A DNA stretch of 64,000 bases from a virus (IMGVR_UViG_3300020020_000026:18287-82286), one strand, 5' to 3'. Shown: positions 40,773 through 64,000, numbered from the stretch's first letter. Numbers and translations are program-made. Notes: generated by a model from the sequence alone, not told the origin.

Positions 40773-42869
40773 CTACCAGGTCACGCCCGCCACGAATGAA
40801 ACGACACCAGCGCGGCGCATCGTCCAGTTCATCGGCAGGATGAGTCGAAGCGCCAGTGAATCCGTCTGGAACATCGAGACGGCGGGAGCCGCGACAACGC
40901 CAGGGGTTCCGGCGGTGCCGATATGCGCAGGCGAGGTGTCCTCCATGTGTAGCGTAGCTTGGTCGCTGATCTCAAACCTCGGATTGTCGCCAGAGATCGA
41001 GACGTAGTCGGCCGCGTCGAGGCACAGCACCGTACCGAGAGGCACGGTCCCGCTCTTGATCACCGGATAGCCCATCAACCGATTGTTGTTGATGTCCGTT
41101 GCGAACGGGAAGAGCCCGCCCGGCACCGGAGGCTGCACGAACCCAATCGACAGCGCCTGTTGCGGGTTCATGATGAAGACCATCGAGCGGACGTTGCCGT
41201 TGGTCGCCGTCAGGATCGAACCGGACAGCCCCTTGAGATCGCCAACGAGGGCGTTGAAGCCGCCGCCTGCGGTCGGGGTCAGGCCGACAACGCCGTTGCG
41301 CAGACCGGCGGGACGAATGGTCGTCGCCGGGTTGGCGTCGAGCAGGATGGTGTCGATGGCGATCTGCGTGTCTTCCTGGATGGCATTGCGCAGAAGGCCT
41401 TCGATGGCGGGCACGGAATGCTCGTCCATCTCCCTCGTCCAAGTCGTAATCACGGCCATCTTTTTCGGAACCATCGAAGTGGTCGTGAACGCGGCCTGAC
41501 GCACCGGGATCGGAGCGCCTTCACCGACGAACGAACCGGCCACGGTCGGCGTCGCCGCTCGGGTCGGCACGTTGATCTTGCCGTTGCGGCCGAAGCTGAG
41601 CTTGAGGCCCATCGCTGACAGCGACGGGTAGACCGAAGACGGCAGAAGGCTCGGCATCAGATCGGCATTGATCTGTTGCACCAGCTCGGCCGCCCAGCCA
41701 GCGACGGTCGTCATCGCCGGGGCGGTCGCCGCCTTCAGCGTGAGATCGCAGATGACCTTGGTGGCTTCATCTTCGCCGTAAATCTTCTGGCGAATCTGAT
41801 CGATGGTAAAGCCAGCGAAGTCCGGAGCCTTGGACAGCGCCTTGATCGTACCGGCGCGGACCAGGAACTCGATGGGGTCGATCTTCTTGGCCGGGAGGTT
41901 GAACGGCCGGGCGCTAGCGGTCGCGCGCAGGGCCACCTTGGTCTTGCCGTTGCCGTTGCCGTTGTCCTCGCTGGACTGTGCGGCCATCTGGGCCTCCGAA
42001 TCTTCCAGGGCCTTGAGCGCCAGCACCTGATCGCTGATGCGCTTGTTCAGCTCCTGGGTGGTCGCGAGATCGGCCTCGGTGACGTTCTCGTCGTCAACCT
42101 TTTCCAGATGCTCGTTCAGTTGGTCCCGCAGCGCGACAATGCGCTGTTGGGTAGCTTCGATGCGTTTCGTAAGGGGTGACATTGTCACTGTCCTTGTGTT
42201 CGGTTTCGACTTGGCTTGCCCGCCGTTGAGACCGCGACGTTCGGCGCTCTGGTCTTTCTCGTTGCCATGCCCGGCAAAGACCATTGCGACGGTGTCGCGG
42301 GAAATCTTGAGCGATTTTGCAATCGCCAGTGCGTTCGGGTTGGCCGGGATCGCGACCAGGGAGGTCTCGACCAGCTCGGCCTGTTTGAATCGGTAGCCGC
42401 CGCTGCCGTCCTTGGTGATCGGCTCCGCCACTCGCGGCAGGAAGCCGACGCTGACCGCCTTCAGAATGTCGGCCTCGATCAGCCGGTGGATTTCATCGAT
42501 CCGTTCGGAGGTGCCCAGCGGCGCTAGGCGCAGCTCGCCGCGCAGCTCGCCGTCCGCGACTTTCAGATTGTGCCACTTGCCGATTGGAAAGTTCGGATTG
42601 TGGTTGAACAGCGCGACCGGATTGCGCTTGAAGTTGACCAAGTCCCAGCCCTCGGCCTCGATGATGTCGCCCATGCGGTCCGGGCTAGCGTCCGACAGGA
42701 TGAAGGTCAGCCCGCCGACATCGGAAACGTGCGTCTTGCGGACGACCTTCTTGGCGGCGCGCTCGTCCCATTGCAGGGCGCACGCCTCCTCGTCCCCGCC
42801 ATCGCTGACGCAATGCTCCATGAATTCTTCGCGGGTATCGAAATCGTCCGGAGAGGCTTTGGTCTTCAT
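40773..42869 (-). CDS. Prohead protease (HK97/S78) fused to major capsid protein
   Basis: DRMGD, LFNH, SVGF, ETSLVAIPANPNA, then HK97 capsid (FVGEGAPIP, SMFQTDSLALR). Confidence 0.93.
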   Translation of the reverse strand: MKTKASPDDFDTREEFMEHCVSDGGDEEACALQWDERAAKKVVRKTHVSDVGGLTFILSDASPDRMGDIIEAEGWDLVNFKRNPVALFNHNPNFPIGKWHNLKVADGELRGELRLAPLGTSERIDEIHRLIEADILKAVSVGFLPRVAEPITKDGSGGYRFKQAELVETSLVAIPANPNALAIAKSLKISRDTVAMVFAGHGNEKDQSAERRGLNGGQAKSKPNTRTVTMSPLTKRIEATQQRIVALRDQLNEHLEKVDDENVTEADLATTQELNKRISDQVLALKALEDSEAQMAAQSSEDNGNGNGKTKVALRATASARPFNLPAKKIDPIEFLVRAGTIKALSKAPDFAGFTIDQIRQKIYGEDEATKVICDLTLKAATAPAMTTVAGWAAELVQQINADLMPSLLPSSVYPSLSAMGLKLSFGRNGKINVPTRAATPTVAGSFVGEGAPIPVRQAAFTTTSMVPKKMAVITTWTREMDEHSVPAIEGLLRNAIQEDTQIAIDTILLDANPATTIRPAGLRNGVVGLTPTAGGGFNALVGDLKGLSGSILTATNGNVRSMVFIMNPQQALSIGFVQPPVPGGLFPFATDINNNRLMGYPVIKSGTVPLGTVLCLDAADYVSISGDNPRFEISDQATLHMEDTSPAHIGTAGTPGVVAAPAVSMFQTDSLALRLILPMNWTMRRAGVVSFVAGVTW

Positions 42870-42886: not shown

Positions 42887-43162
42887 CTATTTCGTGCGGC
42901 ACTTCAGCGTGCAAGTTTGTTCGCGCGTGCGCCCGGCCGCAGTCGTGATCCGGTTGATCAGTGCGTAATTTTCGCCAGCCGATCCGCCTGACAGCCAGAT
43001 CGTCGTTGTGCTGTCGTCAAACATATCGACGCCTTTGCTGACTCCGGTTGGCACGGTCCACGTCGAGGTGCTGATGACATCGCCAGCCAGCGGCTTGGTC
43101 CAATCAACGACGTAGTCCAGTACTTCGTCCGGGTCTTTCGGGTCGTCCCAGCTCTTCGCCAT
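42887..43162 (-). CDS. Phage adaptor-like structural protein (KDP.E.LDY..DW)
   Basis: KDPDEVLDYVVDW...WLSGG..G..Y...NRITT..GR. Confidence 0.75.
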   Translation of the reverse strand: MAKSWDDPKDPDEVLDYVVDWTKPLAGDVISTSTWTVPTGVSKGVDMFDDSTTTIWLSGGSAGENYALINRITTAAGRTREQTCTLKCRTK

Positions 43163-52723: not shown

Positions 52724-53233
52724 GTGGTTCCCGTGTTGGTCGAGAAGGCCCACGCCTTCGCCAAAGTGGCGCACGCGGGGGTTACGAGAATGGGCTCCGG
52801 TGAGCCCTATGTGGAACACGTCGAAAGGGTCGCCATGACGCTGACGTGGCTTGGGTTCCCTGAGCATGTCATCGCCGCCGCATACCTCCACGACGTAGTC
52901 GAGGACGCGGGCGTCAGCTCTGAGGAGCTGGCCGAGAAGTTCAGCCCGGAGGTCGCCGCCCTGGTGGCGGAGGTCACCAACCCGGTGCTGCCCAAGGCCC
53001 CAGGAAACCGCGCCTGGAGAAAGAGCGAGGAGGTCAAGCACCTCGCCAAGGCGAGCTACTACGGGGCCTCCCTGAAGCTCGCGGACATGCTGGACAACTC
53101 CAGCAACGTCAGAACCAACGCCCCGGAATTCGCAAAAACCTACCTCCCGGTGCTGGCCGCCAAGCTGGAGGTACTCGGCCACGGGCACCCGGAACTCTAC
53201 GCCAGGGTCAAGGCCAACATCACGAAAGCGTGA
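52724..53233 (+). CDS. HD-domain small alarmone hydrolase-like protein (Mesh1/SpoT HD)
   Basis: AHAG..R..SGEPY..H...VA, AAYLHDVVED, V.EVT, KLAD.LDN. Confidence 0.88.
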   Translation: MVPVLVEKAHAFAKVAHAGVTRMGSGEPYVEHVERVAMTLTWLGFPEHVIAAAYLHDVVEDAGVSSEELAEKFSPEVAALVAEVTNPVLPKAPGNRAWRKSEEVKHLAKASYYGASLKLADMLDNSSNVRTNAPEFAKTYLPVLAAKLEVLGHGHPELYARVKANITKA

Positions 53234-54382: not shown

Positions 54383-54598
54383 ATGAAAACCTACCGCCTC
54401 GGCTCATCGGACTTCGTCTACGCGCCCGGCATGATCCGCTGGGCCATCAACGGGGCTCACTTCCCCAAGGACCGCCCGAAGATGGTCGAGGTCGTCGCGA
54501 GCTGGGGTGTCCCCAAGAAAGCGGCGCGGGCTCTCGTCACCGGCAAGGTGCCCTACAAGGTCGAGGGCGAAACCGTCGTCTTCAGCGTGAAGGAGTAA
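54383..54598 (+). CDS. Hypothetical small protein
   Basis: AAGGAG RBS; MKTYRLGSS. Confidence 0.65.
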   Translation: MKTYRLGSSDFVYAPGMIRWAINGAHFPKDRPKMVEVVASWGVPKKAARALVTGKVPYKVEGETVVFSVKE

Positions 54599-54602
54599 AC
54601 CA

Positions 54603-54827
54603 ATGGGCTACGCCCTCGCAACGTCTACCTGTTTCGGATGCCGCCGGTTGTTCTCGTACAATCCGGTGCGCGTCCCCAGCATCCGCGATCCGAATACCGG
54701 CACCAAGGAGCCGGTCTGCTTTAGCTGCATCACGCGCGCGAACGTGAAACGCAAGGCGAAGGGGCTCGACCCGCTGGTCCCGCACCCGATGGCCTACGAG
54801 CCGTGCGACGAATCGGAGCTGTCATGA
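54603..54827 (+). CDS. Small Zn-finger protein (CxxC..F..NP..VPS...CxxC)
   Basis: AAGGAG RBS. Confidence 0.7.
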   Translation: MGYALATSTCFGCRRLFSYNPVRVPSIRDPNTGTKEPVCFSCITRANVKRKAKGLDPLVPHPMAYEPCDESELS

Positions 54828-55009
54828 AACGTGACCCGCTTACCTCCCGCTACTCGGTCTGCCTGGTCGGCAACGGCTACTCGGTCGAGGACCGCAGGAC
54901 CGGCAAGCGCCTGGCCTACTTCGCCTCGCGCGGGGCCGCAGAGCGCGAGGCGCAGCGCCTGAGCGAGGTCGTCGTGGAAATGAAACGCAAAGAGGAGAAA
55001 AACGAATGA
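54824..55009 (+). CDS. Hypothetical small protein
   Basis: ATGA overlap. Confidence 0.6.
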   Translation: MKRDPLTSRYSVCLVGNGYSVEDRRTGKRLAYFASRGAAEREAQRLSEVVVEMKRKEEKNE

Positions 55010-55218
55010 CGCGCGTAAGGATACCCGCATACACAGACAGATTCATGATGGGCGACGCCTACGGCGAGATCGTCAAAGTGACCAAGCGCAAGGAGCGCTA
55101 CGTCGGCGTACCGTCGTCACGTTCACGAACGGACGCATACGAGATTGCCCACGTCAAACTGGACAAATCCGGCAAGACGATGAAGTTCATCCTGGACGAC
55201 TGCACGGAGGTTGATTAG
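55006..55218 (+). CDS. Hypothetical small protein
   Basis: GAGGAG RBS. Confidence 0.65.
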   Translation: MTRVRIPAYTDRFMMGDAYGEIVKVTKRKERYVGVPSSRSRTDAYEIAHVKLDKSGKTMKFILDDCTEVD

Positions 55219-55238
55219 ACGGGCATAAAGCCCTATAT
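55210..55238 (+). promoter_or_regulatory. Promoter of the HTH gene (near-leaderless)
   Basis: GTTGAT-N17-CTATAT; ATG 12 nt after the -10, no Shine-Dalgarno. Confidence 0.65.
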
Positions 55239-55249
55239 CAATCAATACC

Positions 55250-55519
55250 ATGGACCATAAAAAGTATCGTAAGGCGCTCGCCCAGCTCGACCTCACTCAG
55301 GCCGCCGCTGGCGAGATGTTCGGCGTAGGTGCCCGCACCTCCAGGCGCTGGGCTTCAGGTGATGCCAAGGTGCCGCCAACGGTGGCGATGCTCCTGGAGC
55401 TGATGATCTCCAAGCGCGTCAAACTGGAATTGAATATTCCGGTGAGCGCGGAGCGTCCGCAGGCAGAGCGACGGGTCTGGACCTTCCAGGCGAAACAGGC
55501 GGTCCATGCGATGGAATGA
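55250..55519 (+). CDS. XRE-family HTH regulator (repressor candidate)
   Basis: LDLTQAAAGEMFGVGARTSRRWASG. Confidence 0.8.
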   Translation: MDHKKYRKALAQLDLTQAAAGEMFGVGARTSRRWASGDAKVPPTVAMLLELMISKRVKLELNIPVSAERPQAERRVWTFQAKQAVHAME

Positions 55520-55746
55520 CCATGGCCGAAAAACCCGAAGTCCGTTACGGAAATTACGACGACCTGGCGTCACGTTTCGCGCCGAATGAGGCTTGGGTTC
55601 TGAACGCCAAGCGTACCAAGTGGGCGGAGACGAACGCCATCAGGCACGCGCACGTTGTCCACGAACTTTCTAAGGAAGCCTTCGAGGCCGAATTCCCTGA
55701 CGCCCCGCCGCTGCCACCGGAAGCCTTCAAAGAATCGCGCGGTTAG
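55516..55746 (+). CDS. Hypothetical small protein
   Basis: ATGA overlap; converges on the RelA/SpoT-like gene. Confidence 0.6.
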   Translation: MTMAEKPEVRYGNYDDLASRFAPNEAWVLNAKRTKWAETNAIRHAHVVHELSKEAFEAEFPDAPPLPPEAFKESRG

Positions 55747-56750
55747 CTGCGCTTCCACCGGCCGTCGATCACCTTCCAGTCGTCATCCAGGTTGTCGAGA
55801 ATCTCACCGTACAGCGCCTGCATCTTGGCATTATAGCTTGGAATATCCGGGTGTCCCTTCGGCAAGCTGCGCGAGTCTTCGTACAGCTTGTGGCCGCCGC
55901 GATTGTCCTTGGCGTCCAGCAAATCCGGGTGCGTAAGTTGCAGCTCGCCAATCAGCCCCGTCTCGCGGTCGCGGAATAACAGTGGCCGGTCGGTGTAGTG
56001 CGAATCCGGGATGGTGCGCCAGCCCTCGTCAATGATCTCATGGGTCTTGGCCAGCTCGTTCATCACCTTCTCGGCGTCGTCCGGATGGTTCAGCACGAAC
56101 GTCCCGCGCGCGGTGTCGGTGATGCGGGCTATCGATACCGGCCCGCCCGCCTCCTTCTCTTTCTCCGCCAGCTTCTCCAGGATGCGCGCGACGCCCTTCG
56201 GGTTCTCCACGACCTCGCCGGTCTTCTCGTCTATTTTTTGCGTCTTGGCTGTCGGGTTCTTGAACGTGACGCCCAGGTTTCCGGCGATCTTGTTTCCGGC
56301 TTCGGCAAAATTTGCCTGCGCTATTGGTGCGGTCCGCTGCACGTCCTCGATGGTCTTGATGGGCGATTCATTGACCCACTTGGCGCGGACCTTGCTGAAG
56401 CCATCGCTGCGCGCCTTGATGCCTGCCTTGTAGCCTGGGACCGCTGACGGCTTCTTGTCTCCGCTATCTTTGTCGTCGTCGGTTGGGCCATCGGACCAAT
56501 TGCCGTGCGTGCTTTGGTCGTGATCCCCGTGCTTCCCCAGCAACGCCATCGCGCGGCGCTTCTCGCTGGCGAACTGGCTCTTCAGCCGATCCTGCGGAGC
56601 CTTGACGCCAAACCTGATCTCGCCGTCATCGAAGATAATCTTGATCATTGTCGCTTCGTCGCGATCAACCGGCTCCAGCTCGTCGTTAATGTAGGCGATG
56701 GTCGCCTTGCGGCCGTCGATTGTCTCGTAGGTGATCATCGAACCTCCCAC
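55743..56750 (-). CDS. RelA/SpoT-like nucleotidyltransferase effector
   Basis: K...RILEK, ITDTARGTFV, HY.D, ELQL, GHKLYE; tag KHGDHDQSTHGNW. Confidence 0.72.
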   Translation of the reverse strand: MGGSMITYETIDGRKATIAYINDELEPVDRDEATMIKIIFDDGEIRFGVKAPQDRLKSQFASEKRRAMALLGKHGDHDQSTHGNWSDGPTDDDKDSGDKKPSAVPGYKAGIKARSDGFSKVRAKWVNESPIKTIEDVQRTAPIAQANFAEAGNKIAGNLGVTFKNPTAKTQKIDEKTGEVVENPKGVARILEKLAEKEKEAGGPVSIARITDTARGTFVLNHPDDAEKVMNELAKTHEIIDEGWRTIPDSHYTDRPLLFRDRETGLIGELQLTHPDLLDAKDNRGGHKLYEDSRSLPKGHPDIPSYNAKMQALYGEILDNLDDDWKVIDGRWKRS

Positions 56751-58744
56751 CGCACGCCGTCGAGAATGAAGATCGACTTGACCGGCGCGGCCAGGTTGGT
56801 GTCGCGCAGCACCTTGTCAGTTTCGGCCCAGACCTTTTCCTGGAGAGCAAACAGCCTGCGCCATCCTGCTCCGGTGTTCGCAGAGTTCTTGCCCATCTTT
56901 GCGTTCATGTAGGCGATCTCGGCCATGGTCTCATGATAGGCCAGGTTGGTATCGACGTTGCCCTTTTTCCATTCGGACCAGTAGGCCTTGCTGTAGTTGG
57001 TGATGCCGTCGTCATCTTCGAGCGACGGCATCATGTTTTGGATTTGCTGCCACTCTTCGTAGAGCGGGTACTTCGTATCGTAGGGCGGACGCAAGGTGCC
57101 GTCAGGTTTCATGACCGCAGCACTGCCGCCCCGCTTGCCCCAGTAGTACGGATGATTCGGGTCGGGCGGCGGACCGGGGTCGGCCATCACTTGCTCGGTC
57201 TCGGCCCGGTAGGTCTCCTGCAGCAACTGGAATTTACGGTGGCCGATTTCGTGAGCGGTGATGCCGCGCACGTTATCGACGTTGATCTGCTTCGTGTAGA
57301 GCGTGACGCCAGGCGAACCGAATGTGTAGCTGCCCGCGTATTTGTACGTCGCACCCGCCAACTTGAATTCCTTGTCCTCGTCGCTGTACTCGATCAGCTC
57401 CGGGTTGAAGTCGAGCTTGGTCGCGGTGGCTGATGCCAACGGCCTAACCAGCGCGCTCTCCATCGCATCGGCGGTTTGCTCGTCGGTGTAGCCGGTCGTT
57501 GACGGTACGTTACCGTCAACGTCGTCACTGCCGCCGCCATCGGTCCAACGCCCGTGTTCGTCGCGCGGGTGTTCGGCTTCGTTGTAGGCCCGGCCGCGTC
57601 GCGGCAGATCGCTGCCCTCTTCGTCCGTAGGCCGGTCGGGGCCAGGATCGTCAGCGCCCTCGGGGTGCGCCTCCTCCCATTCGGCCCTCCACATATTCAG
57701 GCAGGCGGCGACGGCGACGATCTGGTCCTTGCCCATGTCCATCAGGCGCGGAACGCATTCGTCCATGAACTCGCTGTGCGCTGAGCTGCGCTCCGACAAA
57801 AGCAAATCGCCCCGCCTTCGATAGGCGTCCAACCCCGCAAGCCTGACCTGGGGCCGCTTGATCTCTCCGCCCTCCAGGGTGGAGCCGACAGCGCCAACGC
57901 CCAGCGCCCGCTTCTTGCGGTCCTCCTCGACCCCCAGCTTGCCCTTACCCTCGGTGAAGCTTTCGGCTTCTTCAAGCAGCTTGGTAATCGGGATATCGAT
58001 TCGATAGATCGACATCTTCTTGCTGTCGGCAAGCACGTTGTTGGCGGCATCGACGCCGATTTCGGCGGCCCAGCGATGGTGGCCGTCGAGAATGTAATCG
58101 TCTTTCGAGACGAAGATCGGATTGCTGTTGTAACCGGCCGGGCTCTGTAACTTTCTGGCGATGGCAGCGACCTTGGCTCCGTTCAGCTCGTTCTGCGTTG
58201 CGCGCAAGTGCGAAGCGTACTGCTCCTCCTGCACGGCACCGTAGCCCTTCGCCTTGAGATATTCGAAAAACTGAGCGTCCTGCTCCTTGGCCAACTGCGG
58301 CATCTGCACGCGCGGGATGCCCTTGGTGTCGGCGCAAAACAGGGAGGTGGCCTTGATGGTCACCAGGCATAAATTATAGTTCGGGGCCTTCTCGCCCTTT
58401 GCGATCATGCCCTTCGAGATTTCGCCCAGCTTGTTGATCAGGACCGAAACGCCGCGTGGCTGGTCCAGCTCAACCTTGCGCCCTTCGTGCAGCGCCCGGA
58501 CTGCGTCGTAAACGTCACTGGTGTGAATCACGCCATCCTTGACGTAAGCCTGGTCCGAATAGCCGCCACCTGGGTGAGAAGCCCCATCACCGCCGTCGCT
58601 CCCGCCGCCACCGTCCGTCCATTGACCATGCTCGTCGCGCGGCTGGCTCGGGTCGAAGCGCTTGTCTTTCAGGAGCCCATCGAGAATGACGATGTCGCCG
58701 TCTTCCCAATCGTAGCGTCCTTTGTCGGGTGCCTTGTCGGTCAC
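56735..58744 (-). CDS. Polyvalent protein: ParB/Srx-like domain plus HExxH metallopeptidase-like domain
   Basis: LRATQ...PIFVS.D.YILDGHHRWAA; AHEIGH...HETMAE; two PRDEHG.WT tags. Confidence 0.75.
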   Translation of the reverse strand: MTDKAPDKGRYDWEDGDIVILDGLLKDKRFDPSQPRDEHGQWTDGGGGSDGGDGASHPGGGYSDQAYVKDGVIHTSDVYDAVRALHEGRKVELDQPRGVSVLINKLGEISKGMIAKGEKAPNYNLCLVTIKATSLFCADTKGIPRVQMPQLAKEQDAQFFEYLKAKGYGAVQEEQYASHLRATQNELNGAKVAAIARKLQSPAGYNSNPIFVSKDDYILDGHHRWAAEIGVDAANNVLADSKKMSIYRIDIPITKLLEEAESFTEGKGKLGVEEDRKKRALGVGAVGSTLEGGEIKRPQVRLAGLDAYRRRGDLLLSERSSAHSEFMDECVPRLMDMGKDQIVAVAACLNMWRAEWEEAHPEGADDPGPDRPTDEEGSDLPRRGRAYNEAEHPRDEHGRWTDGGGSDDVDGNVPSTTGYTDEQTADAMESALVRPLASATATKLDFNPELIEYSDEDKEFKLAGATYKYAGSYTFGSPGVTLYTKQINVDNVRGITAHEIGHRKFQLLQETYRAETEQVMADPGPPPDPNHPYYWGKRGGSAAVMKPDGTLRPPYDTKYPLYEEWQQIQNMMPSLEDDDGITNYSKAYWSEWKKGNVDTNLAYHETMAEIAYMNAKMGKNSANTGAGWRRLFALQEKVWAETDKVLRDTNLAAPVKSIFILDGVRWEVR

Positions 58745-59427
58745 GGCACGATCTCGACTTCGAACCGCCGGTAGCCAGACGCCGTTTTGCGCATGCTGAG
58801 AACCTTGAACCTGGTCCCCTTGTCGATCAGGATTTCAGCTTCGTGTGCGTGTTCGCGATCCACGATGGGCAGAACATTATGCCCCTTCGGCAGCTTGATC
58901 TTGATGGTGTTCTTGCTGAACGTCTCGGCAATCTTCTGCGACATCGAAGTACTGACAAAGGCCCGGTCCTCGAAAACAATCGGATCGTCGCCCGGCTCCT
59001 TGTCGCGCCACAGGTCGGAGAGCTGCTTCGACAACGTGTTGCCAACACCTCGATAGACCGTCGCGTCTTCCGTCAGGCGATGCTTGGCGATGGCGCTGCT
59101 CAGTCGCTTGGCGTGTTCGCCTGGTGGTTTGCCAGCGCGCAGACTGTTGTTGATTTTGCTGAAACCATCGGGGCCTTGATAGAATATAATCGATTTCTGC
59201 TCGTCCGGAGTCAGTAGCTTGCTGTCCTTGCCGGGATCGACCGGACTGCTTGGGCTGGCATTGCCGGTAGCCTCGTCTCCGCCGCCACCGCCCGCACCGA
59301 ATTGCCCGCCATCAGGCCCGCCTGCGGGTACGCGCGGGTGCTTGCCTTCGTCCCACTCCTTCAGAAACCGCTGCGCGCGTATCTTGGCGATGCGCCATTG
59401 CTCGCGGGCGTCGTCCGTCTCCAGCAT
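58741..59427 (-). CDS. ADP-ribosyltransferase (VIP2/Alt-like, R-S-ExE)
   Basis: INNSLR, VYRG, FVSTS, HEAEILI; tag WDEGKHPR..G...GGQF. Confidence 0.88.
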   Translation of the reverse strand: MLETDDAREQWRIAKIRAQRFLKEWDEGKHPRVPAGGPDGGQFGAGGGGGDEATGNASPSSPVDPGKDSKLLTPDEQKSIIFYQGPDGFSKINNSLRAGKPPGEHAKRLSSAIAKHRLTEDATVYRGVGNTLSKQLSDLWRDKEPGDDPIVFEDRAFVSTSMSQKIAETFSKNTIKIKLPKGHNVLPIVDREHAHEAEILIDKGTRFKVLSMRKTASGYRRFEVEIVP

Positions 59428-59783
59428 CAGGCAAGCGCGAGCTTCGAAGTGCCGATCATGTAGAACCGGCGCTCCGCCTCCTGCGGCACCGGATTCTTGC
59501 GCGTTCCAGAGCGCAGGCGAATGTAGGCCGCCATCAATAAGATGTACGGATCGACCGCTATCGCCACGCCTGGCGTCACGTTGAAGATGAACTCTTCGCC
59601 CTTGCCGTCGAACAGGTCGAGATAGTTGTCGCCCTGCGCCGAAATCAGCACCGACACCACCGCAGGGGTCCAGTCGGCCGGGCAGATCAAACCAACGATG
59701 TAGTCGGTTCCGATGGCCAGCACGTCCGATTCCGATGCGCCTGCATCAAAGGTCGGACCACTGTGAACATTGAGGATGGCCAT
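59427..59783 (-). CDS. Small beta-rich structural protein (paralog B)
   Basis: CPADWTPA.....S..G....DL.D..G.E. Confidence 0.7.
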   Translation of the reverse strand: MAILNVHSGPTFDAGASESDVLAIGTDYIVGLICPADWTPAVVSVLISAQGDNYLDLFDGKGEEFIFNVTPGVAIAVDPYILLMAAYIRLRSGTRKNPVPQEAERRFYMIGTSKLALA

Positions 59784-59785
59784 GG

Positions 59786-60139
59786 CTATGCTTCCAGCTT
59801 TTCGATAGCGACCGCGAACAACCGGCCATCTTTCTGCGGCACCGGATACTTGGCGGACCCCGATCTGAACTTGATGAAATTGATGTGCTTGGCCCACGGA
59901 TCGCGGATCATGATCGCGGAATTATCGCCGCGCACCATAACGGTAACCTCATTGCCCTCGGCATCGTACAGATCGTTGAAGCCGCTCTGGCCGTCCGTAC
60001 TGATCTGAAACGTCAGGTTGGCCGGGGTCCAGCCACCAGGGCAAGTGATCCGCACAATGTCGCCGCCCGAAATGTCGAGCGGCTCGGACAAGGACTTGCC
60101 GGGCTGAAACAGCGGGCCATCGAGGATTTGCAGCGTCAT
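59786..60139 (-). CDS. Small beta-rich structural protein (paralog A)
   Basis: CPGGWTPANLTFQISTDG...NDLYD..G.E, KFRSG. Confidence 0.75.
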   Translation of the reverse strand: MTLQILDGPLFQPGKSLSEPLDISGGDIVRITCPGGWTPANLTFQISTDGQSGFNDLYDAEGNEVTVMVRGDNSAIMIRDPWAKHINFIKFRSGSAKYPVPQKDGRLFAVAIEKLEA

Positions 60140-60215
60140 AGATTTCCCCTGTGATCAGTGTGGACAAGCGGGAAACCCGCTTTCCCCATACTTCGGTATA
60201 GGGCATGTTGTCCGC

Positions 60216-60677
60216 ATGAAACATTTCAGTTCTGAGCTGCGGCAGATGTTTCGCGACGACCTGTTCAAGACGGTCGGGCAAGCCCTGCGCAACGATATGC
60301 CGAAAGCGCTTCAGCACGCCATGATCGAGATGGTGGACGAGCGGGTGTTCGACTCGGTCGACCAAATGCTCGACCGCTTCTTCCACCAGGACGATATGGA
60401 TTGCTGGCTGTCGTTCACCCGCGATGGGCCTACCATCCTGATCGGCATGGGACCGGGCGATTGCGCCGCACAATTCTCACCGGAGCTGAGCATCGAAACC
60501 TACTTCGATGACAAGATCAGCTTCGCCGAAGAGAAGGCTGTCCTCGACCAGATCGCCGGGCTCAAGCCGTTCGTCGCCAAGCTGACCGAATCGCTGCGCT
60601 TGCTGGAGGCGCGGGCCAAGGTGTTCACCGGGCGGGTCCATGAACTGGCGAATTCCAAGGGTGCAGCCGGTCAGTAG
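60216..60677 (+). CDS. Hypothetical protein (lone plus-strand insert)
   Basis: 153-aa ORF filling the gap, opposite strand. Confidence 0.65.
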   Translation: MKHFSSELRQMFRDDLFKTVGQALRNDMPKALQHAMIEMVDERVFDSVDQMLDRFFHQDDMDCWLSFTRDGPTILIGMGPGDCAAQFSPELSIETYFDDKISFAEEKAVLDQIAGLKPFVAKLTESLRLLEARAKVFTGRVHELANSKGAAGQ

Positions 60678-61185
60678 GCCAGCCGCTTTCGTCGCACCCA
60701 GGCAGGATGCGGCCGATCCGGTTGGCCTCCTCGCGAAGAAACCACTGGCTGATCAGCCGCGCATACATCCGGATCAAGGGACGCCGCTCCGGATCGTTCC
60801 TGACCCGGTTGAGCAGCTCCTTCTTCGGGGCCATCAGCAGATAGACCTGGGCGTTGAGCTGTTCGCCCCACCAGTCGCGCAGCTTCTGGCCGGGCAATCC
60901 CATGATGACCCAGGCCGTGTGATCCGCCGGGTATTCCGACAGCCGCGCCAGGCGCTCGTTGCGCTCGGCCAGCAACAGCCCCGTAGCCTCTGGCGGCCGG
61001 TCGCGCCCGTAGCCGCGCCGCCTGGCGATCTCGTCCAGGTCGATCCTGGTGTCGCCCTTGCGCGCATTCAGGCGAACGTGCGTCGTCTTGCCGGATGCCG
61101 GGGGACCGCAGATCAAGTTGACCCGGCAACCCGGCTTCGGGAGCCGATCCGGCCGCAACAGGTCGCCGTAGGGACTGGCAACCAT
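60625..61185 (-). CDS. P-loop NTPase (AAA_33-like) with HNH-type C-terminal tail
   Basis: GPPASGKT, IDLD; C-terminal GCD..G.P.D..HPWN. Confidence 0.75.
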   Translation of the reverse strand: MVASPYGDLLRPDRLPKPGCRVNLICGPPASGKTTHVRLNARKGDTRIDLDEIARRRGYGRDRPPEATGLLLAERNERLARLSEYPADHTAWVIMGLPGQKLRDWWGEQLNAQVYLLMAPKKELLNRVRNDPERRPLIRMYARLISQWFLREEANRIGRILPGCDESGWPTDRLHPWNSPVHGPAR

Positions 61186-61196
61186 GTCACGCCGTG

Positions 61197-61388
61197 TCAC
61201 GCCGTGACTTCCTTGACCGCCCACATGACCGATTCCTCAAGCGAGGTCATCGCCAGCGCCCTATAGCGCCCCTCCTTGAGCCGGTCATAGAGCCCGTCCA
61301 GCTCCTCGGCCTTCAGCTTGATCGCGTCAATCAGCGCCTTCTCCTCGCTGGTCAGCGTGCGATAGACCGGGCGAAAACGGCTAGCCAT
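61197..61388 (-). CDS. Acb2/Tad1-like nucleotide-signal sponge candidate
   Basis: YR.LT.EEK.....IK...EEL...RY.ALA.T.LEE..MWAVK. Confidence 0.65.
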   Translation of the reverse strand: MASRFRPVYRTLTSEEKALIDAIKLKAEELDGLYDRLKEGRYRALAMTSLEESVMWAVKEVTA

Positions 61389-61457
61389 CTAGACCCCCCT
61401 GAACGGCGCGACGAAGCCAGCGGTGTACCCGCCAGCTTCGTCCCCGTTTCGACCTTG

Positions 61458-62042
61458 CTACTTCCTGCCGCGCTGGCCCTTCGACGGTGTCGGCACGTTC
61501 GCCGCATCGCCGGGCACCACGACGGCAAAGCTGACCCAGCCGGTGGTCGGCGTCCACATCGCCTTCCATTCGATCTGAGCCTTCGCGTCCTCCGGGGGCT
61601 CCGGGATCGGCGGCAAGGTGTTGTCGATGCCAGGCTGATCGCCGGGGAGCCCGGTGCCGGGGCGCGGATCGCTCGGACCCCAGATGTACACCGGCAACCA
61701 TCCGCCGCCGCCACCCGGCGGCAGGACGATGGGATGCGAAGGCTTCGGCTGATCGCCTGGTAGACCCTGATCAGGGCGCGGCTGCGATCCCGGCAAGCCT
61801 TGATCGGGGTACGGCTGATCGCCGGGCAGGCCTTGGTCCGGATGCACAGGCGCACCCGGCGGCAACGGGTAGTAGATCGGATGCGACGGGATCGGAAGGT
61901 CGCCGGGCAGCGTGTTGTCTATCTGCCCGCCCTGTCCGCCAGGCAGCGTGTTGTCGATGCCAGGCTGCGCTCCCGGCAAGCTCTGGTCAGGCCGTGCCCC
62001 AGTATCAATGGGGATGATCATCGCAAGAATACCCTTGGTCAT
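61458..62042 (-). CDS. Proline-rich repeat protein (PDQGLPG / IDNTLP)
   Basis: AAGGGGAG RBS before MTKGILA; 3x IDNTLP, 4x PDQxLPG. Confidence 0.75.
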   Translation of the reverse strand: MTKGILAMIIPIDTGARPDQSLPGAQPGIDNTLPGGQGGQIDNTLPGDLPIPSHPIYYPLPPGAPVHPDQGLPGDQPYPDQGLPGSQPRPDQGLPGDQPKPSHPIVLPPGGGGGWLPVYIWGPSDPRPGTGLPGDQPGIDNTLPPIPEPPEDAKAQIEWKAMWTPTTGWVSFAVVVPGDAANVPTPSKGQRGRK

Positions 62043-62071
62043 TTGGTTCTCCCTTTGCGGCTTTTGGCAGC

Positions 62072-63631
62072 TTAGGCGATAAGCGTGGAAACATCGACCG
62101 GGCGCATTTGCTGAGCCACTCCGACAGCCATGGCCAGCGCCACCATACCGTCGATCCGGCCGCTCGACTTGTTCTTGCTGAGCTTCCGGTTTGCATCGTC
62201 CTTGCCCTCGACCACCGCGCAGGCCGCGCACATCGACAGCACCGGATGGTTGCCGTGGACGATCAGCTTGTCGCGGATCAGCTCCTCCAGGGAGCGCAGC
62301 GCAGGCGACATCGAAACCGTGCCCTGGCCGAATTCCACGAACTTGTCCTCGATCACATTGACCGAAAATCCCGCGCGCTCCAGCCAGGGCTTGAGGTGCT
62401 GCATGTTCCAGCGGTCGAACGCCAGCTTGCGGATGTTGTAGCGATTGAACAAGTCGCGCAAATGCTTGGCGACGTACTCGTAGGTCACCGTCGTGCCCGG
62501 CGTCGTCTGCAGATACCCCTTGTCGCGCCACAGATCGTAAGGCACCCGGTCGGCGCGAGATTTCTCTGCAAGCCCTTCGGCGGGAAGCCAGAAAGTCGGT
62601 GCGCAATGCCACGCCTTACCGGCAGGCTGGCCGATAAGGACCAGGGCCGTGAGGTCCGCAACGCTGGACAAGTCCAGACCACCGTAGAGCGGGGTCGTAC
62701 CATTGAACGGCTGCACCGTGCCGCCGCACGACTTCCAGAGACTCGCCGTCACAAAAGGGTTGGAGGCTTCGACCCTCTGATTGAGAACCAGGTTCCGGAA
62801 CTCGGCCTCGCGCGCAGGCAGACGCTTGGCGTCCTGCGCCATCGCCAGAACCTCGGCCTTGTTCATGAACAGGTCGAGCGCCGGGTTCGCCGCCTTGATC
62901 GCCTTCTCGCTGAACGGGTCGTCGTCCATGTCGGCGCTGTTGATTCGCAGCACCACCTTGGGGTCCGCGCCCGATTTCGCGTCATCGATCAGGAGCGACA
63001 GAAGGTCGGCATCCGTAGGTGCCTGCGTCGAGATGATCAGGCTAAGTGGGGCCTCCTGAGCCGCCGTCGCAGTCTCCAGGGCCTCGTACAGCGAGAATCT
63101 CGGTCCTTTTACTTGGCCGAGTTCATCGTGGATGCAGAGGCTGGGGCTCAGACCGAAGGCCGTCGCCGTCTCGGCCGACAGCGCCTTGTAGACCGTCCCG
63201 ACTTCCGCGCAGTGCAACTCCCTGGCCGTCTCCTTGATGCGGATCACCTTCCGCAGGACCGGCGACATCAGCACCATCTTGCGCGCCAGATTGAAGATGA
63301 TCGAGGCCTGGTCCCGGCTCTGCGCCGCGCTGTAGAGCGAGCTGTTCGGGGTGTACTCGGGACCGCACAGGTGCAGGAGCGTGATCGCCGCGCACTCCGT
63401 CGTCTTCGCGTTCTTCCTGCCCCTGGTGATGATCGCCCGCCGGGTGCCGTGCGGGTTGTCGTAGATCGCCCGGAAGTCCTCCTTCATGAACTCCGCCATC
63501 TTCAGCGGCTTGCCTACGTTCTTGCCCTCCGGGAGGAACAGAAAACGCTCGCACCACTCGATGTTAATCTCGGCGCGGGTCTTCTTGCGCTTGGGCGTTT
63601 CACGTGAAACGTCTGTGGAAGTATCAAGCAC
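62072..63631 (-). CDS. terL: Terminase large subunit
   Basis: GRKNAKT, IHDELG, IISTQ, GLDLSS..DLTA, RIDGMVAL. Confidence 0.96.
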   Translation of the reverse strand: MLDTSTDVSRETPKRKKTRAEINIEWCERFLFLPEGKNVGKPLKMAEFMKEDFRAIYDNPHGTRRAIITRGRKNAKTTECAAITLLHLCGPEYTPNSSLYSAAQSRDQASIIFNLARKMVLMSPVLRKVIRIKETARELHCAEVGTVYKALSAETATAFGLSPSLCIHDELGQVKGPRFSLYEALETATAAQEAPLSLIISTQAPTDADLLSLLIDDAKSGADPKVVLRINSADMDDDPFSEKAIKAANPALDLFMNKAEVLAMAQDAKRLPAREAEFRNLVLNQRVEASNPFVTASLWKSCGGTVQPFNGTTPLYGGLDLSSVADLTALVLIGQPAGKAWHCAPTFWLPAEGLAEKSRADRVPYDLWRDKGYLQTTPGTTVTYEYVAKHLRDLFNRYNIRKLAFDRWNMQHLKPWLERAGFSVNVIEDKFVEFGQGTVSMSPALRSLEELIRDKLIVHGNHPVLSMCAACAVVEGKDDANRKLSKNKSSGRIDGMVALAMAVGVAQQMRPVDVSTLIA

Positions 63632-63634
63632 CGC

Positions 63635-64000
63635 TTACTGCTCCGTCAGGTGGTCGTCCCGGTCGCGCCCCTGCGCCATCCAGGGCCTGACCTCCGGGGC
63701 CGCCTCCTCCTGCTTGGCTCCTGCAACCTTGGTGGCAACTCGTTGCTGGGTCGATAGCCGCAGCTTGTCCATCAGGGTTCCCATCGCCCGGCCTTCCCGG
63801 TCGTGCATCACGGCCACCTGGTTCAAATGGGCCAGGTCTTTGGGGTTCTTGGGGTCCAGAAGACCCACCCGGAACTCCTGCAGCGCCTCGCCAAGGAACC
63901 TGGCATGGCAAATGTGGCGGCACAACTGGGCCAGGAGGGGCCACGTTTCCTTGGGGAACCAATTCGGGGGGCTAACCTCCCAGAACCGGTTCCATTCCTT
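63635..64000 (-). CDS. Terminase small subunit-like protein (5' partial)
   Basis: Directly upstream of terL; W...P..WF....PLL..LCRH, KLRLS.Q.R. Confidence 0.7.
   Translation of the reverse strand, partial: KEWNRFWEVSPPNWFPKETWPLLAQLCRHICHARFLGEALQEFRVGLLDPKNPKDLAHLNQVAVMHDREGRAMGTLMDKLRLSTQQRVATKVAGAKQEEAAPEVRPWMAQGRDRDDHLTEQ

Follow-up and report, generated by a model that had tools for sequence, protein, structure and literature searches.

We analysed a 64,000-nt stretch of viral DNA (hereafter the window), which comprises bases 18287-82286 of the IMG/VR virus record IMGVR_UViG_3300020020_000026, 82,286 bp in length and rated complete by CheckV. Towards its right end three consecutive genes (55743..59427) encode an ADP-ribosyltransferase (ART), a 669-aa protein with a ParB/sulfiredoxin (Srx)-like and a zincin-like domain, and a 335-aa protein with a RelA/SpoT-like fold. 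The enzyme domains of these proteins are preceded by a leader peptide of ~20 residues, hereafter the tag, which in the 335-aa protein takes an odd form. Reading from sequence and predicted structure, we propose with evenly balanced confidence that the three genes represent a phage-type polyvalent protein in split form, with the enzymes most likely packed into the procapsid and delivered with the DNA, and the leader acting as a handle. Positions below are those of the window, and features are on the minus strand unless stated.

The tag and its spread

The tag has the form [WFY]-D-E-x-x-[HQ]-P-R...G-x-[FW] and is followed by a Gly/acidic spacer. A fuller pattern of the leader is [KR]-[DE]-[WFY]-[DN]-[EP]-x-x-[HQ]-P-R, then either D-x-x-G-[RK]-[WF] or a longer P-A-G-S-P-E-G-G-Q-F loop. 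A 22-state profile was built from the tags of homologues and scored on open reading frames (ORFs) of at least 60 aa in all six frames of the 82,286-bp record. The canonical tags of the window scored 29.8, 30.8 and 37.9 bits, versus 1.7 bits for the next best other ORF in the record. The lowest of these scores belongs to the ART leader, where a long form of the tag, ...KEWDEGKHPRVPAGGPDGGQF plus a Gly run, occupies residues 22-48 (59284..59364). The other two tags lie in the 669-aa protein, where the preliminary description of this DNA had placed two tags, one per domain, and the profile agrees: tag 1, of FDPSQPRDEHGQW form, spans residues 27-47 (58604..58666; 30.8 bits) and tag 2, YNEAEHPRDEHGRW, residues 385-405 (57530..57592; 37.9 bits). 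These two tags are the same at 12/14 residues, and the codons of identical residues differ at 6 nucleotides; as a DNA repeat they are 75% identical over 52 nt. Therefore, it is the peptide that has been kept and not the DNA. In the AlphaFold2 (AF2) models of the 669-aa and 335-aa proteins, the predicted local distance difference test score (pLDDT) is mostly under 50 over the tags and over the Gly/acidic stretch behind them, as it is for most of residues 1-52 of the 669-aa protein. We read this low model confidence of the tags as probable disorder.

A second profile of 37 positions was made from 56 aligned tags, in which R and G are invariant (56/56) and H/Q, P, D and the aromatic residues are strongly kept. 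Across 533 non-redundant tags only positions -8 to +13 about the Pro-Arg pair, together with a Gly-rich tail, carry information, and no conserved residues were seen upstream of position -10. It had been claimed that the tag follows a basic residue; this stands only in part and is not general, the frequencies at position -8 of the 533 tags being 0.19 for K and 0.11 for R. We measured tag positions in the 143 new proteins among the best 150 of the profile search described below (hereafter top-tag proteins), which contain 726 tags. A median of 41 aa precedes the first tag, a median of 309 aa comes after the last (under 60 aa in 3/143), and the inter-tag distance has a median of 231 aa (under 60 aa in 4/583). 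Taken together, these distances indicate that the tag leads each module rather than trails it. Three homologues (P0299, P0303 and P0076) carry a Cys-flanked NPCHDP[ED]TG[EQ]FC close to the N-terminus, at the place taken by the tag in other homologues, and this motif keeps the H...D/E...G-x-F spacing. The spacing suggests that the tag forms a small closed loop.

The tag is not restricted to the window. A regular expression identified 122 tag instances in 79 of the 120 listed homologues of the 669-aa protein, in three length forms with the same anchor residues. IMG/VR holds 435 relatives of the ParB module, and 80 of their loci were analysed. With the 22-state profile (>=8 bits) we found 164 tags on 106 ORFs from 71 of 81 sources, these being the 80 loci and the window. 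All tagged ORFs share the strand of the ParB gene, and they often form runs of two or three consecutive genes. The preliminary description had proposed a profile search of the tag with a listing of its cargo; as run against 1.84 billion representative proteins, the 37-position profile matched 4,304 clusters at a threshold of E<=0.001, of which 746 remained at 1e-10 and 36 at 1e-30. Because a single tag rarely reaches the threshold, 4,304 is a lower bound. As many as 22 matched tag stretches were found in one protein of 7,334 aa. The tag had also been thought portable, and it is: the leader and tag of the ART recur at 55-70% identity on three proteins (P0305, P0306 and P0308) whose remaining sequence is unmatched. 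A tblastn search of cultured phages with a 45-aa tag stretch gave no match at E<=1, a result that says little as the query is short and of low complexity.

Cargo modules and head proteins

To survey the cargo, tagged ORFs were cut at their tags, giving 229 pieces in 108 clusters. Representatives of 82 clusters were scanned against Pfam; the 26 left out are pre-tag pieces of 41-104 aa. The ParB-like module forms a cluster of 40 members with no Pfam family, 38 of which are post-tag modules. The cargo as a whole is very diverse, other post-tag modules being ART (two families), Pyr_redox_2, Acb1, Zeta toxin, NUDIX, GNAT, CDO_I, DUF7178, DUF7689 and an ATLF-like peptidase. Moreover, 11 post-tag modules consist of ParB, Peptidase_S78 and Phage_capsid, the cargo being fused to the N-terminus of a protease-capsid protein, and further ones are joined to DUF2213. 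Among the pre-tag pieces the long ones are portals, belonging to the Pfam families Phage_portal_3, Phage_portal_2 and Portal_Mu, with the cargo on the portal C-terminus. We take both the portal C-terminus and the protease-capsid N-terminus to face the procapsid interior. These fusions therefore place the tagged cargo class inside the head, and they are the main argument that the class is head cargo.

We also scanned 18 of the proteins richest in tags (P0151-P0168), leaving out the two longest. MuF was matched at E<=1e-4 in five of them, one above the Pfam cut-off, and Portal_Mu in one. Their other domains are ART-PolyVal, InPase, 2H, Acb1, Zeta toxin, topoisomerase IB and a C39 peptidase, and none of the 18 has a conjugation domain. 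Judged by its domains, the cargo is of a putative anti-defence or takeover kind (Acb1, NUDIX, Zeta toxin, ART, GNAT, 2H, InPase). We considered whether a zincin peptidase or ParB is an obligatory partner of the tag and rejected this, HExxH being found in the tagged ORFs of 19/71 loci, and ParB and a peptidase of the window's type in 24/143 and 13/143 top-tag proteins, respectively.

A protease-capsid homologue is present in 47 of the 80 loci, a terminase in 32 and a portal in 31. The usual order in these relatives is terminase, often a stand-alone S78-like gene, a small gene of the 117/156-aa type described below, tagged genes, protease-capsid gene, a small gene, portal and adaptor, and the window retains the first half of this order. 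In many relatives a second, stand-alone gene of ~355 aa that is homologous to the protease part of the fusion directly follows the terminase (L006:5900-6952, L025:2293-3336); the window does not have it. The tag is also found with Terminase_6, Phage_portal_3, DUF2213, cement and Major_capside, with a lambda-type GpA terminase, portal_2 and Phage_capsid_4, and with Portal_Mu. MuF adjoins tagged genes in another locus, and it shares a protein with Portal_Mu in one of the 18 proteins scanned above.

The three genes of the window and their neighbours

The window had been described as holding three consecutive late genes with toxin-type catalytic domains, and this holds: they are a coupled minus-strand set in the gene string of the terminase, and the individual domain calls (an R-S-ExE ART, ParB/Srx, a putative HExxH peptidase and RelA/SpoT-like) were upheld on the evidence given here. 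The ART (58741..59427) is a 228-aa protein that matches PF03496 at E 6.3e-17 (62 bits, cut-off 23.4). Against PDB by phmmer it matches Vip2 (1qs2, E 3.4e-7), with YR, STS and E-x-E (EAE) aligned in order to the same motifs of Vip2, so that the catalytic motifs are in register. PDB rows for scFv16 over residues 24-83 of the ART were discarded as Gly-linker artefacts.

The 669-aa protein (56735..58744) consists, from sequence and the AF2 model, of a tag, a ParB/Srx-like domain, a Cys-containing helical mini-domain, a second tag and an HExxH zincin-like domain. It has no Pfam family even at E<=10 and no NCBIfam family, and phmmer searches of PDB with this protein and the 335-aa protein returned nothing or chance antibody rows. 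By tblastn it has no match in the plasmid collection and only distant ParB-like pieces in cultured phages, covering 19-29% of the query at 28-39% identity. The mean pLDDT of its model is 63.9, residues 51-270 being mostly at 72-96 with dips to 60-64. The ParB/Srx-like domain (residues 57-275; 57920..58576) has a DGHHR motif, of which D220, G221, H222 and H223 are invariant in 28 sequences, and matches phrog_2859 at E 1.4e-24. Foldseek matched it to ParB-N, Noc and sulfiredoxin at probabilities of 0.80-0.98, although with weak E-values, and residues ~165-272 gave VIA Z-scores of 7.3-8.1 versus Noc, ParB and Srx, where a Z under 8 can reflect a common structural arrangement. The zincin-like metallopeptidase domain (residues 420-669; 56738..57487) contains HEIGH at residues 498-502 (57239-57253), and HExxH is conserved in relatives. 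Its residues 425-523 match minigluzincins with modest Z-scores of 4.6-5.7 (selecase 5.5, TTHA0227 5.7), and model residues 550-645 match residues 2247-2352 of gp50, the virion RNA polymerase of phage N4 (PDB 9pnr), at Z 6.2 over ~90 residues.

Between the two modules lies the mini-domain (residues 316-372; 57629..57799), with the pattern FMxxC...AxAxCxxxW. A jackhmmer search identified it in 45 ORFs. One is the window's own, and two others, with a further weak match, are outside protease-capsid genes; the remaining 41 are protease-capsid ORFs or contig-end fragments, whose N-terminus it forms. Since the mini-domain is common to the protease-capsid N-termini of relatives, the 669-aa gene seems to derive from a ParB-protease-capsid fusion, with a tag and peptidase now in place of the rear half. 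The mini-domain may tether the 669-aa protein to the capsid shell. The window's own protease-capsid protein begins with a shorter version of it (42761-42830), and a pre-tag piece of one relative (L028) matches Pfam ChaB.

The 335-aa ORF (55743..56750) likely starts at the ATG at 56738, which gives 331 aa. No Pfam family was matched even at E<=10, and there was no useful NCBIfam match, so the RelA/SpoT-like call stands without Pfam support, on fold and key residues. The AF2 model has a pLDDT of 89, and its best Foldseek match is Tas1 (6ox6, probability 1.00, E 9.1e-7), followed by exported and cytoplasmic small alarmone synthetases and CapRel, with 25 matches at E<=0.001. Within the catalytic domain (residues 110-330; 55761..56423), placed by the match to Tas1, D212, R215 and E269 are invariant and Q271 nearly so; we read E269 and Q271 as the conserved acidic and Gln residues of the synthetase E-x-Q strand. 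The odd tag variant, HGDHDQSTHGNW (residues 74-85; 56496..56531), was recognised from its alignment column, which in homologues holds canonical tags, and has no score with the tag profile. In this column 14 of 27 homologues have a canonical tag (18-38 bits), six have the same 12-letter variant (the window's included) and seven have neither, several of which look truncated. The pLDDT of the model is under 50 at residues 76-96, the region of the variant. Ahead of it is a small N-terminal beta domain (residues 5-49; 56604..56738; strands in the AF2 model at 6-49), which is a portable head piece: with the same odd variant it is also found in front of Zeta-toxin domains (P0145-P0147), and a related beta piece heads an ART in a relative (L047:10594-11349). 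In another relative (L027) an 80-aa stand-alone copy of the beta domain is directly before the protease-capsid gene. A homologue of the RelA/SpoT-like protein was also found in a Bradyrhizobium genome.

The phage is contractile-tailed, with sheath, tube, baseplate, portal (PF04860) and a protease-capsid fusion on the minus strand at 18-49 kb. The fusion of prohead protease and major capsid protein (40773..42869) is a 698-aa protein with matches to PF04586 (E 3.9e-9) and phrog_617 (E 4.2e-87), and Peptidase_S78 is thus the head protease type of this phage. Just upstream of its gene is one for a 91-aa member of the Gp77 fibre-tail adaptor family (42887-43162; PF23148, E 3.4e-25). The large terminase subunit (62072..63631; PF20441, PF03354) heads the string that contains the tagged genes, and the minus-strand order at the right end is terminase, a Pro/Gly-repeat ORF, an Acb2/Tad1-hairpin protein, a P-loop kinase-like protein, two small paralogues and the ART, 669-aa and 335-aa genes. 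The Pro/Gly-rich ORF (61458-62075), directly after the terminase, has repeats of the form PDQGLPG, overlaps the terminase end in another frame when read from its first start, and has homologues near the terminase in 5/80 loci. The Acb2/Tad1-hairpin protein (63 aa; 61197-61388; PF24729, E 3.3e-15), encoded two genes after the terminase, belongs to a family of sponges for immune signalling nucleotides and has homologues near tagged genes in 2/80 loci. The P-loop kinase-like protein (60625-61224) matches AAA_18 and AAA_33 below the Pfam cut-offs and phrog_4581 at E 2e-19, with homologues in 7/80 loci, mostly near the terminase or tagged genes.

Directly upstream of the ART gene are two paralogous small genes of 156 and 117 aa (59427..60139), for which no Pfam or PHROG family was matched. 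An ESM Atlas search with the 117-aa protein gave only unnamed viral clusters and weak XepA/DUF6385 leads. Homologues are present in 13/80 loci and adjoin tagged genes in most, and we regard these proteins as candidates for a helper or receptor role towards the cargo. The end of the 156-aa gene and the start of the ART gene overlap in TGATG; the next two junctions are overlaps of GTGA and ATGA, with GGGAGG ahead of the latter. The preceding small gene and the ART, 669-aa and 335-aa genes are thus translationally coupled. A promoter and terminator scan of 54500-64000 gave sites no more frequent than in shuffles. A 6-kb block of small plus-strand genes converges on the end of the three-gene set, and this block and ~6 kb of further minus-strand genes separate the tagged genes from the protease-capsid gene. 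Within the block, 2.5 kb away, is an HD_4 domain protein (52724-53233, plus strand; PF13328, E 2.8e-15) of the SpoT-type hydrolase family, which may be the phage's own antidote to the RelA/SpoT-like enzyme. We rejected HD_4 as a regular companion of such cargo, as the sole relative locus with RelA/SpoT-like cargo has no HD_4 in its flanks. Lastly, the reported absence of MuF from the window extends to the entire 82-kb record, in which PF04233 has 0 matches; control genomes were matched.

Proposed packaging, alternative explanations and known systems

In the reading that we favour, a module would be built from an optional short head piece or helix, the ~20-residue leader, a Gly/acidic spacer and the domain. 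The window's set would then consist of an arginine-type ART, a ParB/Srx-like NTP-binding (nucleoside triphosphate) or nuclease module with a zincin peptidase, and an enzyme like small alarmone synthetases. The free-standing window proteins would be packed into the procapsid like the fused modules of relatives, and as all of the window's cargo is free-standing, any loading must be non-covalent. The leader would be a handle for uptake of the module and/or its separation within the procapsid, comparable to the role of the capsid targeting sequence (CTS) in T4, and would stay on the released module rather than be a mere cut site. The cargo would enter with the DNA and act early on the host.

Several observations weigh against this. 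Some tagged modules are already linked covalently to a portal, MuF or protease-capsid protein, and since anchored cargo retains its tags, loading alone is an insufficient explanation. The tag is found with at least three head systems of differing portal, capsid and terminase families, including PF04860 with the S78-capsid fusion, and a single conserved capsid receptor would hardly suit several unrelated heads. Moreover, the window's own portal and protease-capsid protein are without a tag, so that no anchor for free cargo is evident, and the tag was present in 0/4 cultured-phage loci scanned (Pag-Yong1, Jess A, RHph_TM26 and MR15). The Foldseek E-values of the ParB-like domain are weak (0.025-0.3) and the fold support for the zincin-like domain is modest. 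The tag had been proposed to be a portable signal for capsid loading or prohead-protease cleavage; a portable tag and a head-tied class of cargo stand, but neither plain loading nor plain cleavage fits. One further idea, which we rate as unlikely, is that the leader is an address independent of head type that remains on all cargo modules: a small hairpin 'sticker', mounted on a flexible spacer, whose tag-tag or tag-receptor contacts would gather free and anchored modules into a cargo body in the procapsid, and which would then lead the modules out through the tail. If so, ~20 residues would be enough to load any protein into many unrelated phage heads.

The tag could instead be only a processing site, at which the S78 prohead protease or a cargo zincin frees the modules of a polyprotein, with no role in loading. 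Tags do lie between polyprotein domains, up to 22 per protein, and between portal and cargo; HExxH is enriched, occurring in 19/106 tagged ORFs where 200 shuffles gave 3.65 on average and never more than 11; and Iyer et al. proposed that zincin peptidases process polyvalent proteins (PMC5512222). However, a quarter of first tags are within 20 residues of the N-terminus and some begin at residue 3-7, which leaves nothing for a protease to take off. The tagged ORFs of 52/71 loci lack HExxH, as do those of 10/14 loci with terminase, protease-capsid and portal, and peptidases of the window's type are as rare among top-tag proteins as noted above. Moreover, the protease-capsid fusion must itself be cut yet has no tag-like site, and the lack of conservation upstream of position -10 also speaks against a cut site, leaving this explanation improbable though not negligible. 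Action during or after delivery, by threading through the tail, recruitment of a host factor such as a refolding chaperone, or shielding from proteases, would account for a tag that is independent of the head system, is borne by anchored and free modules alike, one per module, and is apparently disordered with a flexible spacer next to it. Against this, the tag is rare in the bacterial-genome loci with ParB relatives that we scanned (2/37), the nearest bacterial-genome relative being in a Xanthobacteraceae MAG, and we think it rather doubtful that this is its role. The observations would nevertheless suit such a role, or an association of tags with one another, no less than loading.

That the three proteins are not packaged at all, but are ordinary late enzymes of the infected cell whose gene position is incidental, would be in keeping with the lack of any fusion to a head protein in this phage and with the plus-strand block and further genes that stand between them and the capsid genes. 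It is difficult to reconcile with homologous modules on portal C-termini and protease-capsid N-termini in relatives, with the mini-domain of those N-termini that the 669-aa protein still has, and with an order of terminase, small gene and tagged genes that is the same as in relatives; we consider it quite improbable. Finally, the tag might have no function of its own and be a linker cassette or recombination joint. Modules are indeed shuffled at tags, the ParB module following tags in very different proteins (the 38/40 cluster members above), and the same leader and tag head other cargo. Nevertheless, a mere joint would hardly show residues as strongly conserved as the invariant R and G across 4,304 clusters while the DNA diverges, nor three length variants with the same anchor residues, and this possibility appears very slight.

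Phages carry head enzymes that disarm the host on entry, and outside T4 we know of no rule for which proteins travel in the head. If the tag marks head cargo, candidates for injected effectors could be listed from sequence alone, among them Acb1, NUDIX, ART, alarmone synthetases and many DUFs, and it would offer a handle for loading chosen proteins into laboratory phages. The class of cargo is known, as polyvalent effectors, and the leader appears to be undescribed in print and very widespread; no relevant paper was found for the tag motif or the literal tag strings in a search that subscription journals lay outside. To this the window adds cargo that is all free-standing, a conserved odd tag variant and, as a hint at a tether, a mini-domain that the capsid protease protein has as well.

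Polyvalent proteins, as Iyer et al. 2017 describe them in their main text, have MPTase, ART, DdrB-ParB, RelA/SpoT and MuF as hubs and a late virion gene position (PMC5512222). The window's set is like these in its hub domains, late gene position, MuF or portal fusions among its relatives and inferred role as head-delivered effectors, and the top tag-bearing proteins carry families from that work (ART-PolyVal, InPase, 2H, MuF). With disparate domains in one polypeptide, ParB/Srx-like and zincin-like, the 669-aa protein is itself polyvalent, and the ART and the RelA/SpoT-like protein are solo versions. Unlike the published polyvalent proteins, the set is split over three genes, two of them single-domain, and none matches the Pfam models from that work. 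A term search of the paper's main text found no mention of a tag-like linker or signal, although its supplementary files may show the motif. The same text assigns aa 2130-2448 of N4 gp50 to MPTase and notes that they are needed for encapsidation (PMC5512222). The match of the zincin region falls within this segment, with modest strength; unlike gp50, the 669-aa protein has no polymerase. MuF polymorphic toxins of temperate phages, as described by Jamet et al. 2017, have toxin-type C-terminal domains (ART, RelA/SpoT-like pyrophosphokinases) in the head module, and a term search of the text found no mention of a tag-like linker or cleavage motif (PMC5576092). The window's set differs from these in that the defining N-terminal MuF domain is absent from the whole record, and we saw no immunity gene adjacent to the set.

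In function, the tag's closest analogue is the CTS of T4 internal proteins and Alt, which is removed by the T4 head protease (gp21) and ends in its cut motif. Like the tag, the CTS is a short conserved peptide common to diverse proteins, in this case defence-related and head-packed, and in T4 is portable to foreign proteins; it is present once, at the N-terminus, and steers its protein to the scaffolding core (PMC3012670). Unlike the CTS, the tag is of other sequence, is repeated before every module, is found with S78-type and other heads, and may stay on. Cargo-loading peptides of encapsulins, short and disordered and attached through a flexible Gly-rich linker, direct enzymes into an HK97-fold shell; they are C-terminal as a rule, and a defined pocket of the shell protein binds them. 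The tag resembles these as a short, probably disordered peptide with a Gly-rich linker, and differs in being N-terminal to its module and in occurring with several capsid families.

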